Part shown: in pieces, positions 1 through 64,000 of the stretch | How positions within the stretch are numbered: the first letter of the stretch is position 1 | How the letters are laid out: every line of letters starts with the position of its first letter | From: Myxococcales bacterium | GTDB taxonomy: Bacteria > Myxococcota_A > Polyangia > Polyangiales > DASUME01 | Length of the DNA stretch: 64,000 bases | Direction: 5' to 3' | NCBI GenBank assembly: GCA_047601445.1 | Contig: JASGJH010000001.1 | Coordinates: 9,376,001 to 9,440,000 of the forward strand | Made by a program: the position numbers

Positions 1-3000
1 GGAACTCGAACGTGGACGTGGAAAAGCTGCCCACGATGCTCGGCGAGTCCGGGTTCGCGATGTTGATCACGTCCATGCCGGGAGTGTCCTGGGACCAACG
101 CGAGGCACACAGCGTGTTGCCCGTGACAGCAGCGCCGGTGTTGTCGAGCTCGAGACTTCCACGCGCGCTCGCGGAGGCCGGGTTGGACACGTCGATCAAG
201 CGCAGCACGTCCGTCGTGTTCACGCGGCCCCGTGCGAACGCGATGTTGCCCGCCACGTACTGGAGCGACGCGCCGTCGCCGTCGTCGAAGGAACCCAGGA
301 ACACCGGTTGCGACGGATTGGTCAAATCGTAGATGCGCAGCCCGTCTTGTGCGCTGAAGTAGAGGCGATTTCCCACCAGCTGCAGCCCCGTGCCATAGGC
401 TTCATCCAGTGTGGCCAGCACGTGGTAGCCAGGCTGCGACGCATCGATCACTTGCATGCCGCTCGCGCCCAGGCTCATCACGGCGATGGATGCGTTGCCG
501 GTGAAGTCCACGCCCGAGTTCTTGGAACCCTCGATCTTGGCGATCTCACTCGGCTGGCTCGGATTGCTGGCGTCGAGCACGGACAGGTCGCCCGTGCTGG
601 AGAGCGCGAACACATGGGGCCAGCTGACCTCCACGTCTCGAGAGGTCGATGGGAAGCTGCCGACCACGTTGGGGTGCAGCGGGTCCTCGAGCCCCGCGAT
701 CTTCACGCCCTCCTTCTCGTCCGCGATCACCAGGTGCTCGCCCCCGAGCTCCACGTCGACCGGCGAGCCGCCGAGGAGAATCGGCGCGACCGCAAGGGCG
801 TCGCCGAGCGTATCCGCGCGCTTGCCGTCGTAGCCTTGCACGCTCACCGTTACCGTGTCCGGCTGCGAAGAGAGCGTGCCGTCGTCGACCACCAGCTCGA
901 AGGTCATCTGCTGCGTGAGTCCAGGCGCGGTGAAGGTCGGACGAGCGGCCTTGCCATCGAACGCCACCGGGCTCCCCGAGCGTTGCCGCCAGGTGTAGTG
1001 GATCGCATCTCCGTCCGGATCCGACGAGCTCGAACCGTCCAAGGTCACCAGCATGCCCGCCGTGACCGACAGATCGGCGCCTGCGTTCGCCACCGGTGGC
1101 TCGCCGCCCCCCATCCCGCCGTCGCCAAGACCGCCGTCCCCGAGCGAGTGGCCATGATCATGGCCCCCGTCGTCACAGCCGAACGCCAACAAACCGCACA
1201 CCGACCAGGCAAGGATCTTGCGCATCCAACGCTCCACGCGAGCCGCGTCCATGGCGTGCGCAACCATGCGCCGCCCGTCCCCTCTTACGAGTCACGACGT
1301 TATCAGATTCAGACCAAACTCCAGCGCGCCGTTCTCTCCGCGCACGCGCTTTGTGCGCTGGATCTCCAGTGGCGTTCGCTGTCGTTCGGACCTCGACCGA
1401 GAACGGCGCAGCAAGGAGCCCGCGGTACGCATGGTAGGCTTGAGTCACACGTCCTGCTGCAGGCCGTGCGGCTCGCAGGAGGGGAGGGGCGCCGCATGCT
1501 CAAGCACTTCGACCACATTACGCTCGTCGTCCGCGACGTCGACGCCGCCAAACGGTTCTTCGGTCTGCTTGGCTTCGAGCAGGACAAATCCGTGGTGATC
1601 GCGGGCCCACGCTTCTCCGAATACATGGGCGTGGCAGGCATCCAGGCCGAGCACGTGACTCTCGCGCTTGCGGGCGCCTCGCCGCGCACCGAAGTGCAGC
1701 TCTTGAAATACCACCAACCGGACGCGCGCCCTGATCCCGAGGCGGGCAATCTCACCCGACTCGGCTTCAATCACGTCTGCTTTGCCGTGGACGACTTAGA
1801 CGCCGAGCTCGCGAAGCTCAGGGAGAAGGGCATCGAGCCGCGCAACGAAGTGCTCTATTTCCACGACCGCAAGCTGGTCTTCCTCTTGGGGCCCGAAGGA
1901 GTCACGGTGGAGTTGGCTCAGTGGAGCTGAACGCTTGCTGGACTAGGGGCTGTTCCTAATTCTCGGCGCTAATTTGTGCTGAAATCCGGATCGTGATCAA
2001 AGGTTGCTGTGCACCGCCACGCTCTGACCGACCAGCAATGGGAGCGCCTCCAGGGACAGCTTCCGAAGCGCCGCCCCGGACCAGCCTCCAAGCTCGGAGA
2101 CTGGTTGTTCATCGACGCCGTGCTCTACCGGGCAAAGACGGGTTGTCCGTGGCGTGATTTGCCCGAACGGTTCGGCCCCTGGAACTCGGTGTACAACCGA
2201 TTCTACAACTGGGCCGAGCGGGGGGCCTGGGAGAAGATTTTCAAGGCGCTGCAGCTGGACGTGGATGAAACGGGCTCGATCATTGATGCCTCTGTCGTTC
2301 GGGCGCACCAAGACGCTTCGGGCGGAAAAGGGGGATCCAATCCAATGCTTTGGGCCGCTCTCGAGGAGGTTTTTCAACGAAGATCCACGCCATTGTCGAT
2401 GCTAAGGCACGCCCACTGCACGTCGCGTTGACTCCTGGACAACAGCACGGCTCGACGATGGCGGAAGAGCTTCTGCCGCACGCTCGGGGGCGGGCGTTCA
2501 TTGCCGACACAGCTTACGACGCAGACCGCATTATCGAGGCAGTCCGCGCGCAGGGGATGAAACTCGTCATCTGCAACAACTCCACTCGCAAGTACAACCG
2601 ACGCCGGCTCGACCGAACCCTGTACCGCGAGCGCTACTTGGTGGAGGTTTTCTTCCACAATCTGAAGAGGTTCCGGGTTATCGCAACCCGGTACGAGAAG
2701 ACTGCGCAGAGCTACCTGGCTCTGCTGCAACTTGCGTGCGTCTGTCTCTGGCTTTCGTGACTGCGCCCCGCGCGTCAGCGTCAGCGTCTACGTGTTCGTC
2801 GTCGTCCTCGTGAGACGTAGTCGTGCGCGTGCGCGAAACGGCGCAACCAATCCGTTCATCGGCCGATATCGAAGACATGCTGGACTATGAGCGGCTCGAC
2901 GTTTACCAATGTGCCCTGCAGTTCGCGGCACTCTCCTTTCAGATTCTCGAGAAAATGCCTCGCGGTCATGGAGAACTTTCTGACCAGCTCAGACGCGCGA

Positions 3001-63000: not shown

Positions 63001-64000
63001 GTAGATGCCGTACGCGCCGTTGGCCGTCCGCGCCGCGGTGTCCCACGTGGCCTTGATGCGGCGGAAGGTCACGCCGTCGCTCGCCTCGACGCGAATGCCG
63101 TCCTTGATCGAGTTCGCGACGGTGAAGTCCTGGATCAGGAAGTCGTTGGTGTTCAGCGCGGCGATACCGTTGACCTGCGCCGTCGTTCCCTTCCAGTTCA
63201 GGATCGTCTGATCCTTGCCCTGGCCGAGCAGATGGATGTGCGCGAGGTTCTGGATATTGACCTCGTTGGTCATCATGTACGTGCCCTGCGCGAGCACGAT
63301 CGTGGTGTCGGCCTCCAACGTGTTCGTCGCATTGAGGAGCGCGGTCGCGTCTCCCGCAGGGATCTCGGTGCAGTGCGCAGACTTGATGTCGGCGTCTCCG
63401 CACTTGTGCATCGGATAGTTGGGATCGCCACCGCCGGCGTCAGCGCCAGCGTCGGCCCCGTCGGGAGTCTCGTCGTCGTTACTGCAGGCGACCGTGAGAA
63501 GCCCGCTCATGGCCATGATCAGCAATCCATTCAACTTCATTGCAATTACCCGGGGGTGTTTGGGGGAGAAGGGCGCCGAAAGAACTGGGCGCATACCGTT
63601 GGTATGGATCATACTGCCGGAATGTTGGGCGATGGCAAGAAACCACTTCGACGAGATCAGCACTCGGAGGACACCCGTCGCGCGATTCTGGAAGCAGCGC
63701 GAAAAGCGTTTGCTGAGAAGGGGTACGCGGAAACCTCCTTGGAGGACATCGTCGCACCCGCACGCCTGACGAAGGGTGCGCTCTACCACCACTTCCAGAG
63801 CAAAGCGGCCGTGCTCGAGGCTCTCTACGTCGAGATGGAGGAACAACTCGTCACTCACGTTCAGGCGCGCATGGCGAACGCGAGCGACGACTCTGTGTCG
63901 CGCATCGAGGCAGCGCTCGATGCCTTCCTCGACGCCTCGTCAGAGCCGGCCTACGTGCGCATCGTCCTTCGCGACGCCCCGAACGTGCTCGGTCAAACGC

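Follow-up and report, generated by a model that had tools for sequence, protein, structure and literature searches.

The genome of Myxococcales bacterium GCA_047601445.1 (contig JASGJH010000001.1; hereafter G000) has no rho gene, and the gene was very probably removed by a clean deletion at its ancestral site, one among many independent losses in the class Polyangia. Rho is the motor protein by which most bacteria stop transcription, and it is an antibiotic target. It is regarded as near-universal, and often as essential, in bacteria other than Bacillota, Mycoplasmatota and Cyanobacteriota. Throughout, other G numbers denote sampled relatives of G000, while f and g numbers denote families and genera.

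The window, meaning the whole 64,000-nucleotide stretch of DNA that was analysed, is located as follows.

Contig 9376001-9440000 (window positions 1..64000), no strand: section of the Rho-less genome; all features of the finding lie outside it

A crude gene caller places 34 genes in the window, among them genes for Usp, a sigma-54 activator, a terpene synthase, GT87, hybrid histidine kinases, LysR, ECF sigma/FecR, an M60 peptidase and an amidase. No match to the Rho models (TIGR00767, PF07497 and a custom profile) and no feature bearing on Rho was found there, and an Rfam search of the window returned 0 matches.

No Rho in a single-contig genome

The G000 assembly consists of one contig, 9,502,601 bp long (completeness 98.68, contamination 5.43). 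The survey's finding that it has no rho gene was borne out by four independent searches, none of which yielded Rho. The NCBIfam model TIGR00767 detected no full-length Rho: its top score was 82.1 bits, against a cut-off of 509.45 bits, at contig 5777932-5778639 (minus strand) and over model positions 156–389 only, which reproduces the best match of about 82 bits reported earlier at the same place. The runner-up matches reached 25.2 and 18.6 bits. With Pfam Rho_RNA_bind (PF07497), the cold-shock-like primary RNA-binding domain, the maximum was 16.4 bits (E 0.068; cut-off 27), within an unrelated 827-aa frame, and Rho_N (PF07498), the N-terminal helix bundle, gave 0 matches at E ≤ 1 (43 candidates scored). 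Searching with three Polyangiales Rho proteins by tblastn (E ≤ 10) returned ATPase cores only and left residues 1–130 unmatched. Lastly, a custom profile of 152 Rho proteins was run (hmmsearch --max) on every six-frame ORF of 25 aa or longer in G000, 171,839 in all. Three matches had E < 0.01 (69.7, 20.6 and 19.1 bits), all in the ATPase core, and profile positions 1–130 found no match in any of these ORFs with filters off. The three ORFs are ATPases of other families.

Contig 5777773-5779056, minus strand: FliI/YscN-family ATPase, top Rho-model match (TIGR01026, Pfam)
Contig 2685305-2686978, plus strand: AtpA frame, further Rho-profile match, 826 bits as AtpA
Contig 2687103-2689385, plus strand: AtpD frame, further Rho-profile match, 814 bits as AtpD

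The first of these scores 461.3 bits with TIGR01026, over the cut-off of 379.5, which places it in the FliI/YscN family; with the SctN equivalog TIGR02546 it scores 493.2 bits, under that model's cut-off of 604.75. Its Pfam domains are ATP-synt_ab (256.9 bits) and T3SS_ATPase_C (61.8 bits). We rejected this ATPase as a replacement for Rho, because the RNA-binding domain is absent and equivalents scoring 80–94 bits also occur in Rho-positive genomes.

Could a Rho that is very diverged, split, frameshifted or unassembled have been missed? This worry had been raised about the two models used before, and the searches with PF07497, PF07498, tblastn and the custom profile answer it without turning up a Rho. 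The class does contain diverged homologues (families f25 and f26, 40–56% identical to Polyangiaceae Rho and scoring as low as 230–470 bits with TIGR00767; G851 and G525 carry f26 examples), but even these retain a highly conserved RNA-binding domain that PF07497 or a Rho profile would detect. G000 stays at or below 16.4 bits with PF07497, has nothing for PF07498 and leaves profile positions 1–130 empty, in one contig that is 98.68% complete. Its ancestral rho slot is a 470-bp gap, and its closest relatives are uniformly negative (both below). We conclude that the idea of an overlooked Rho in G000 is close to refuted.

Rho is confined to two families of Polyangiales

Among 401 Polyangiales genomes, TIGR00767 was over its cut-off in 53, and G172, whose rho is divided over two contig ends, adds one. 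PF07497 and TIGR00767 pick the identical 54 genomes, which leaves 347 of 401 without Rho; four unpublished genomes (G313, G396, G122 and G387) are counted as Rho-negative, and excluding them gives 54/397. The earlier statement that most Polyangiales are Rho-less therefore stands, and the three positives already known (G016, G017 and G033) were again positive. Carriers belong to only 2 of 24 families, f16 (21/31) and f17 (33/191), with 0/178 in the remaining 22. Rho is absent from all nine other genomes of the genus of G000 and from each of the 162 further genomes in its 15-family clade. Polyangiales that carry a Rho have one that is 85–96% identical among them.

Most of these relatives are metagenome bins, in tens to thousands of contigs, so single Rho-negative relatives may be false negatives. 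Fragmentary genomes can be named on both sides: the f16 negatives G180 (64% complete) and G140 (77%), and the f17 positive G172 with its split gene. It is nevertheless highly improbable that absence in the relatives is mostly an artefact of incomplete bins and that G000 and a few others alone are truly Rho-less. When the sample is restricted to genomes with at least 90% completeness and at most 5% contamination, PF07497 is found in just 45 of 305, whereas comparable data from outside the class give Rho in 293 of 322 genomes with a completeness of 85% or more. Negatives follow clade rather than quality (f8 0/88, f22 0/32, f28 0/44). Seven genomes assembled into one contig (G165, G359, G381, G066, G123, G039 and G045) are Rho-negative, as are two in three contigs (G097 and G360).

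The 293 genomes outside the class, 91% of the Myxococcota sampled there, were counted at E ≤ 1e-30. In the other orders of Polyangia, Rho was found in 92 of 241 genomes and no match in 149. The earlier claim that nearly all other Myxococcota have Rho thus holds outside the class and fails for its other orders. Frequencies there differ by family: f28 has none in 44, f89 has 5/37 and f26 has 25/91, mostly as weak matches. Family f26 also contains Rho homologues that are full-length and still have the RNA-binding domain, whereas the catalytic glutamate or Walker A is gone. The tendency toward Rho loss thus reaches past Polyangiales to further families in Polyangia.

The ancestral rho slot is vacant in G000

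Gene order around rho was compared between Rho-positive and Rho-negative genomes. The relevant features of G000 are these.

Contig 6644065-6645090, plus strand: rpoA
Contig 6645155-6645625, plus strand: rplQ
Contig 6655098-6657059, minus strand: gene X' (HEAT/TPR-like, 653 aa), counterpart of X, which lies divergently beside rho in Rho-positive Polyangiaceae
Contig 6657060-6657529, between X' and DUF1385-prfA: vacant ancestral rho slot, a 470-bp gap (synteny)
Contig 6657530-6658636, plus strand: DUF1385 gene, right border of the vacant slot
Contig 6658646-6659719, plus strand: prfA, 3' of the DUF1385 gene
Contig 6659735-6660346, plus strand: ribA, 3' of prfA

In other Myxococcota, 26 of 30 rho loci have prfA (23) or DUF1385 (3) downstream of rho. 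A separate listing of related loci (at least 600 rows), selected by peptide patterns, supplied outgroups and was not taken to order the relatives by closeness. The same-class outgroup G722 has the order rho-DUF1385-prfA. Neither prfA nor DUF1385 follows rho in the 1.5-kb flanks of any of 30 Polyangiales rho loci, and in the Rho-positive genomes G398, G372, G205, G235 and G321 rpoA-rplQ is followed by X, head-to-head with rho. In the Rho-less genomes G000, G045 (f22, Sandaracinaceae-like) and G123 (f8), X' stands head-to-head with DUF1385-prfA. In G000, the 470-bp gap alone separates the two, and neither tblastn nor the custom profile found a Rho remnant in it.

Rho was inherited, then very probably lost repeatedly

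A Rho gene tree places 35/35 Polyangiales Rho in a single clade (support 97) with G722 as its sister (support 98), the only sister-order sequence in the tree. The clade is nested among Myxococcota, and its subclades correspond to species subclades. Since Polyangiales Rho forms one clade beside the same-class outgroup and synteny is conserved, the ancestor of the order had Rho, and the Rho of Rho-positive Polyangiales is inherited vertically. The absence in G000 is then a loss and not a primary absence, given that outgroups and the sister clade keep Rho and the slot is syntenic.

Species trees were built from one linked ribosomal gene cluster; the small families f11, f13, f15, f18, f23 and f24 are absent from them. 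A FastTree species tree (73 rows, 2836 columns) requires at least 7 changes of Rho state. Clade A (22 rows, support 99), which spans 15 families including that of G000, is entirely Rho-negative, and its sister clade B (f16, f10 and f17; 47 rows, support 100) has 21 Rho-positive and 26 Rho-negative rows. Seven rows of the alignment have about 700 residues (G165, G359, G209, G235, G341, G019 and G176). With IQ-TREE (LG+G4; 63 rows of at least 2400 aligned residues each) the backbone was unchanged (clade A 98, clade B 100), and at least 6 changes remained, each forced by well-supported branches. Sister pairs that differ in Rho state include G017 and G066, the Rho-positive crown against G253 and G177, and the Rho-positive f16 subclade against the g45/g40 subclade. 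These trees point to one deep loss in clade A and, in clade B, to at least five further changes (at least nine if regain is disallowed). Of the earlier reading of an ancient loss, the loss itself stands; a single order-wide event does not, being replaced by the deep loss in clade A plus the changes in clade B. The deletion in G000 would go back to a single event in the last ancestor that the 15 families of clade A share, probably an old one since RpoA identity across the clade is only 73–84%.

Alternatively, Rho may have been lost once, at or before the base of Polyangiales, and regained horizontally by f16 and part of f17. Its restriction to 2 of 24 families would fit, unconstrained parsimony (6–7 changes) is blind to gain versus loss, and the gene tree holds G722 as its one sister-order sequence. 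However, Polyangiales Rho is one clade placed as the species tree predicts, with subgroups that mirror species subclades, and carriers are scattered over two subclades of f17 and one of f16, so that several transfers would be needed. Moreover, since X' and DUF1385-prfA adjoin in Rho-negative genomes, regain would need insertion at the exact former slot (X/rpoA-rplQ in Rho-positive, X'/DUF1385-prfA in Rho-negative genomes). It is this synteny that makes even a very old regain from a sister-order lineage improbable; the gene tree alone, with one G722 sequence, would be insufficient. We consider regain unlikely and retain repeated loss.

Candidates for a substitute

How transcription ends in G000 was approached through its gene ends and partner factors. 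Hairpins were counted in the 110 nt after convergent stop codons and in genic controls, with genes called by a crude GC3-based method; on the Rho-positive side, the census covers one 400-kb block each from G398 and G205, with 70 gene ends each and hence low power. Canonical intrinsic terminators (a hairpin with dG ≤ -12 and, after it, 4 or more T in 9 nt) do not form a major route, being near background in G000 (6.6% of 1600 convergent ends vs 5.7% of 900 controls), and the rates of such hairpin plus U-tract terminators in two Rho-positive relatives resemble those of G000. Strong hairpins (dG ≤ -28) follow 7.1% of the 1600 ends in G000 against 1.3% of the 900 controls; the corresponding values are 11.4% of 70 ends vs 0% of 89 controls in G398 and 15.7% of 70 ends vs 3.5% of 115 controls in G205. 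At dG ≤ -25, the excess in G000 is small (15.4% vs 6.8%). An increase in strong hairpins after Rho loss was not seen, as G000 lies below both Rho-positive genomes (70 ends each, low power). The earlier suggestion that intrinsic terminators replace Rho is therefore not supported: the U-tract type is at background, and strong hairpins are no commoner than in G398 and G205.

The other candidate put forward, a hairpin repeat, fared no better. This 77-nt family has 168 copies in G000 (129 near full length, at 91% identity; fold -34.5 kcal/mol), none of them within the window. The copies (60 in tandem, 32 in convergent and 32 in divergent intergenic regions) are spread in proportion to the DNA in each class (1.27, 0.70 and 0.64 Mb, respectively), with no preference for 3' ends.

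Partner factors were located in G000 as follows.

Contig 2776876-2777385, minus strand: nusG, 213.2 bits (cut-off 135.7)
Contig 1339885-1340967, minus strand: nusA, 386.6 bits (cut-off 253.4)
Contig 1063929-1065539, minus strand: RNase J homologue, 433.6 bits (cut-off 400)

NusG was found in 28 of 30 genomes irrespective of Rho state, and NusA is retained in Rho-positive and Rho-negative genomes alike. RNase J as a substitute tracking Rho loss was rejected, since it too is found in 28/30 genomes whatever their Rho state. Nor is the NusG KOW domain relaxed in Rho-negative lineages; in 28 aligned NusG sequences the KOW motif is retained in both groups. A purine bias lost along with Rho was likewise rejected, as the bias is absent from the genes of Rho-positive and Rho-negative Polyangiales (coding-strand purine fraction 0.4997 in G000, 0.4949 and 0.5064 in two Rho-positive relatives).

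The mechanism that we favour, with about even confidence, involves no single dedicated substitute: termination would be Rho-independent and equally used by Rho-positive relatives. Long G+C-rich hairpins, most of them lacking a U-tract, would act as terminators at a minority of gene ends; NusA and NusG may assist hairpin-based termination, and read-through RNA may be dealt with by nucleases, RNase J among them, and by convergent or head-on traffic. The Polyangia ancestor may already have been able to do without Rho, which would explain why the gene was repeatedly lost or degraded in the class.

A more tentative possibility is that Polyangia made Rho redundant first, through a new termination or silencing mechanism at the base of the class, and that decay came after. 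This mechanism might reside in a new factor, or in the RNA polymerase, NusG or NusA of the class. Rho would then have decayed along at least 6–10 lines, by clean deletion (the clade of G000), by scattered deletions (Polyangiaceae, f16) or into degenerate full-length homologues (f26). About as doubtful is the variant in which a factor dedicated to termination or silencing, and not homologous to Rho, arose in the Polyangia ancestor and made Rho redundant, so that the losses follow from innovation and not from tolerance. It is consistent with at least 6–10 losses and degenerating homologues in one class, while 91% of the genomes sampled elsewhere in the phylum retain Rho, and with a use of hairpins that is not higher after Rho loss. 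Most convergent ends in G000 have neither a strong hairpin nor a U-tract terminator, and this lack of a recognisable terminator leaves room for a new factor. Against it, no candidate emerged; NusG, NusA and RNase J are present in either Rho state, and the FliI/YscN ATPase also occurs in Rho-positive genomes. If redundancy did come first, losses beside sisters with a conserved Rho would make the mechanism findable by comparison.

Comparison with known Rho-less lineages

Because relatives within Polyangia lost rho many separate times, the class is a natural setting in which to study how bacteria cope without Rho. It offers replicated natural knock-outs with matched controls, in which the dispensability of Rho, the control of antisense and foreign transcription and of R-loops, and possibly a new terminator can be studied. 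Rho should not be taken for granted when terminators are predicted or operons called in Polyangiales, or when their gene clusters are expressed in other hosts. Many of the sampled Polyangia genomes measure 8–13 Mb; the known Rho-less species Haliangium ochraceum, Conexibacter woesei and Baekduia soli also have large or G+C-rich genomes.

The survey had called this the first Rho-less lineage with big G+C-rich genomes, which is overstated, as H. ochraceum and the two Actinomycetota, C. woesei and B. soli, are already listed without a functional Rho by Moreira et al. (2024, NAR, PMC11347177). In that study, H. ochraceum is the one such case among 12 Myxococcota analysed; the Polyangiaceae kept as Rho-positive are Sorangium, Chondromyces and Minicystis, with a T1 Rho of 415 aa, and Labilithrix luteola and Sandaracinus amylolyticus were dropped in a "conservative approach". 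Clades such as the one described here can stay hidden when surveys discard "anomalous" genomes. In the literature searched, H. ochraceum is the only Rho-less myxobacterium, as the survey had said, and apart from this one species an absence like that of G000 across Polyangia is unreported there; a 2025 review (PMC12360218) does not mention Myxococcota.

H. ochraceum resembles G000 as a large member of Polyangia without functional Rho. That case is one species, whereas here absence covers 347/401 Polyangiales and 149/241 Polyangia of other orders, with several losses and a mapped deletion site. C. woesei and B. soli share with G000 the lack of a functional Rho outside the classical Rho-less groups but, according to PMC11347177, retain a Rho-like protein with N-terminal and RNA-binding parts, of which G000 has nothing. 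The rho-less Bacilli, for which a recent study (Nat Microbiol 2026, PMC13323073) describes relaxed purine bias and independent losses as a natural experiment, are alike in the independence of the losses and differ in that purine bias in Polyangiales is absent in either Rho state. Cyanobacteriota, Mycoplasmatota, Streptococcaceae and other Bacillota, given as Rho-less clades in PMC12360218 and PMC11347177, are similar as whole clades without rho that retain NusG and NusA. Rho is missing there either across one entire clade or, within Bacillota, through scattered losses in a group known to tolerate its absence; in Polyangia, by contrast, losses recur inside one class beside relatives whose Rho is highly conserved (85–96% identity).

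Rho in a single-contig Polyangiales genome

The G000 assembly (Myxococcales bacterium GCA_047601445.1) is one contig of 9,502,601 bp with a completeness of 98.68. The survey's finding was that it lacks the transcription termination factor Rho, and this is borne out, coordinates included, by four concordant kinds of search: there is no Rho in G000. The NCBIfam model TIGR00767 reached at best 82.1 bits against a cut-off of 509.45, at model positions 156-389 only, with runners-up of 25.2 and 18.6 bits. Pfam Rho_RNA_bind (PF07497) scored at most 16.4 bits (cut-off 27) and Rho_N gave no match at E ≤ 1, while tblastn (E ≤ 10) with three Rho proteins from Rho-positive Polyangiales recovered ATPase cores only. 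A custom profile of 152 Rho proteins, run with filters off on all 171,839 six-frame ORFs that reach 25 aa, gave three matches at E < 0.01, a FliI/YscN-family ATPase, AtpD and AtpA, none of which reached the N-terminal third of Rho. The locus of the FliI/YscN-type ATPase (L001, contig 5776432-5780139) has a DnaJ gene upstream and a 390-aa ORF without Pfam match downstream, and no secretion-system genes were found within the 1.5-kb flanks examined.

Every feature of the Rho finding lies outside the 64-kb window, whose genes are ordinary. No Rfam family was found in it, and no notable repeat except one 51-nt inverted pair (94% complementary) flanking a 381-bp segment just below a Usp gene. Besides the following features, window genes are otherwise ordinary regulatory and envelope genes.

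Features in the window (window positions)
2785-2835 and 3217-3267, 51-nt inverted repeat
3343-4317, minus strand, Usp gene
11691-13442, plus strand, FHA-domain sigma-54 activator
16870-17913, minus strand, family-2 terpene synthase

Distribution of Rho in the order, class and phylum

In the order sample (400 Polyangiales genomes and G000; relatives are mostly metagenome bins), TIGR00767 exceeded its cut-off in 53 genomes and also located rho in G172, split over two contig ends. PF07497 picked the identical set, so that two models agree on 54 of 401 and most sampled Polyangiales lack Rho, as the survey had claimed. Positives were confined to families f16 (21/31) and f17 (33/191), with none among the 178 genomes of the remaining 22 families. 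Of the 305 genomes with completeness ≥90% and contamination ≤5%, 45 were positive with PF07497. Four unpublished genomes (G313, G396, G122 and G387) are all negative; without them the count is 54/397, and no other claim depends on them.

The survey had also held that nearly all other Myxococcota carry Rho. This stands outside the class Polyangia, where 293 of 322 genomes matched in a phylum sample (401 genomes, ≥85% complete, E ≤ 1e-30; 6/14 in other orders of the class, 6/65 in Polyangiales), but not in the other orders of the class, with matches in 92 of 241 genomes of a class sample (401 genomes, ≥90% complete; Polyangiales 18/160). There, big families are empty or nearly empty of Rho (f28, 0/44; f89, 5/37; f26, 25/91).

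Repeated loss of rho

We compared a Rho tree (FastTree, 146 rows) with a species tree. All 35 Polyangiales Rho proteins in the Rho tree form one clade (support 97), sister to Rho of G722 (support 98) and inside Myxococcota; f16 Rho is monophyletic (support 99), and the f17 Rho groups agree with species subclades. The tree omits L130 (short alignment) and loci L041-L046, five of which are larger copies of loci already included; the other, L046, is the sole Rho locus of G205, whose Rho is therefore missing from the tree.

For the species tree, RpoA was searched in 80 genomes and found in 77, and the ribosomal-protein cluster, up to 20 kb, was obtained from 72; 22 genes, rpsG to rplQ, were aligned against the G000 copies. 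One RpoA match (G013:C9:184392-185300; 57% identity) has three in-frame stops (two TGA, one TAG) and may be a pseudogene copy or reflect poor assembly. The resulting FastTree tree (73 rows, 2836 columns), which represents one linked gene cluster and leaves six small families unplaced, resolves two clades within Polyangiales (support 100). Clade A (22 rows, support 99; f1, f2, f3, f4, f5, f6, f7, f8, f9, f12, f14, f19, f20, f21 and f22) is entirely Rho-negative, and clade B (f16, f10 and f17; support 100, 47 rows) comprises 21 Rho-positive and 26 Rho-negative rows. IQ-TREE (LG+G4, 63 best-covered rows) gave the same split, with supports of 98 for clade A (19 rows) and 100 for clade B. All outgroups (G405, G731, G603 and G722) have Rho.

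The FastTree tree requires at least seven changes of Rho state and the IQ-TREE tree at least six, all forced by well-supported branches. Because the gene tree is vertical and synteny is conserved, we read these changes as losses. Counted as losses only on the IQ-TREE tree, they number at least 10: one each in clade A, f16 and f10, at least four in one f17 subclade and three in the other. G000 belongs to clade A, in which 163 of 163 sampled genomes lack Rho. The survey's ancient loss in most of the order is only partly supported: we read one deep loss in clade A and further losses in clade B.

Within f17, the rho of G235 (genus g107; L173, 9400-10653) has a long branch (0.42 vs a median of 0.05), and its product shares only 72% identity with the Rho of other Polyangiaceae, so that it may be under relaxed constraint; its genus-mate G392 has a shorter Rho match. 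Another f17 genome, G066 (g49), sister to Rho-positive G017, is a single contig of 1.8 Mb in a family where most sampled genomes are far bigger (about 3.4 to 13.6 Mb); small and without Rho or an RNase J homologue, it looks like a reduced genome.

The empty rho slot

In other Myxococcota, the gene directly after rho is prfA in 23 of 30 rho loci and a DUF1385 gene in 3 more (26 in all), and G722, from the same class, has the order rho-DUF1385-prfA. In Rho-positive Polyangiaceae (G398, G372, G205, G235 and G321), rho stands head-to-head with X, a HEAT/TPR-like gene of 600-730 aa located just beyond rpoA-rplQ. In G000, some 9.5 kb of unrelated genes separate rpoA-rplQ from X', the counterpart of X, after which come a 470-bp gap, DUF1385, prfA and ribA.

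Features at the G000 junction (contig positions)
6655098-6657059, minus strand, X'
6657530 onward, after the 470-bp gap, DUF1385, prfA and ribA

G000 thus keeps both neighbours of rho, side by side, and lacks rho alone; tblastn and the profile over six-frame ORFs detected no rho remnant in G000. The same X'/DUF1385-prfA junction occurs in Rho-negative G045 (f22) and G123 (f8), and its presence in f1, f22 and f8 is consistent with one old deletion. Rho-negative f17 genomes G359 and G165 have DUF1385-prfA with no X nearby.

Diverged Rho homologues elsewhere in the class

The sole Rho match in f26 and f25 genomes is a homologue 40-56% identical to Polyangiaceae Rho; among the matches listed, identity between phyla is usually 65-79%. 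Full-length f26 homologues (L318 in G851, L321 in G525, L322 in G872, L324 in G955, L323 in G795, L320 in G828 and L326 in G920) preserve the N-terminal and cold-shock-like (RNA-binding) domains well. We take the glutamate of the IDERP motif to be the catalytic E211 of E. coli Rho. In place of IDERP, the proteins of genus g140 (G955, G872, G525 and G851) have IDLRP or IDVRP, and those of G920 and G828 have VDARP; G795 has lost the Walker A GKT as well as the glutamate, which is retained in G603 and G474. The f26 proteins may be inactivated or repurposed, and Rho decay or repurposing looks to extend to another part of the class. Separately, one bin (G830) has two Rho matches at full score, 721 and 708 bits, on short contig ends (C92 and C278), which could reflect duplication, strain mixture or contamination.

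Retained factors and 3'-end signals

G000 carries NusG (213 bits), NusA (387 bits) and an RNase J homologue (434 bits). NusG and RNase J were each found in 28 of 30 genomes regardless of Rho state, and the KOW domain of NusG is as well conserved in the Rho-negative as in the Rho-positive group. In Rho-negative G039 (L300; f7, one contig), the NusG match ends at residue 151 of 170 and the remainder resembles a frameshifted KOW end, which may be genuine or come from misassembly.

A crude, home-made GC3-based gene caller gave 5733 G000 genes and 1274 convergent pairs, 967 of them with a gap of at least 20 nt. At 1600 of 1934 gene ends, we then scanned the 110 nt downstream of the stop codon and kept the best local hairpin.

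Hairpins at gene ends and in genic controls
G000 (Rho-negative), dG ≤ -25: gene ends 15.4% of 1600; controls 6.8% of 900
G000 (Rho-negative), dG ≤ -28: gene ends 7.1% of 1600; controls 1.3% of 900
G000 (Rho-negative), hairpin and U-tract: gene ends 6.6% of 1600; controls 5.7% of 900
G398 (Rho-positive), dG ≤ -28: gene ends 11.4% of 70; controls 0% of 89
G205 (Rho-positive), dG ≤ -28: gene ends 15.7% of 70; controls 3.5% of 115

Gene ends marked by a tail-less G+C-rich hairpin are therefore a minority. Such hairpins are not commoner in G000 than in Rho-positive kin in this low-power comparison, and the census found no known termination signal at most G000 gene ends. The survey had named hairpin repeats among the candidate substitutes. 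This 77-nt family (168 copies, 129 near full length, mean identity 91%; fold -34.5 kcal/mol; one copy at contig 7251416-7251492, none in the window) is spread intergenically, and its 168 copies show no preference for gene 3' ends, which argues against that role. Rho probably contributed little even in the class ancestor; a dedicated factor acting instead of Rho is possible.

Comparison with known Rho-less lineages

A purine-bias signature is described for Bacilli in the relevant passages of PMC13323073. In Polyangiales, whether Rho is present or not, purines make up a fraction of about 0.50 of coding strands, and the signature is thus not applicable here. The passages of a 2025 review (PMC12360218) on Rho-less groups name Cyanobacteriota, Mycoplasmatota and Streptococcaceae. 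Among the papers listed by full-text searches on Rho in Myxococcota or Haliangium ochraceum, nothing relevant stood beyond Moreira et al. 2024 (PMC11347177); searches joining Rho, Polyangiales and transcription termination returned nothing, and those on myxobacteria and Rho-dependent processes nothing relevant, judged by titles and abstract openings. The cited passages of Moreira et al. 2024 report a T1 Rho of 415 aa in Sorangium, Chondromyces and Minicystis, and the exclusion of two 'aberrant' species, Labilithrix luteola and Sandaracinus amylolyticus. Among the 12 Myxococcota analysed in that study, Haliangium ochraceum alone lacks a functional Rho and is the one Rho-less myxobacterium reported in the literature searched, whereas here only 54 of 401 Polyangiales genomes are Rho-positive.
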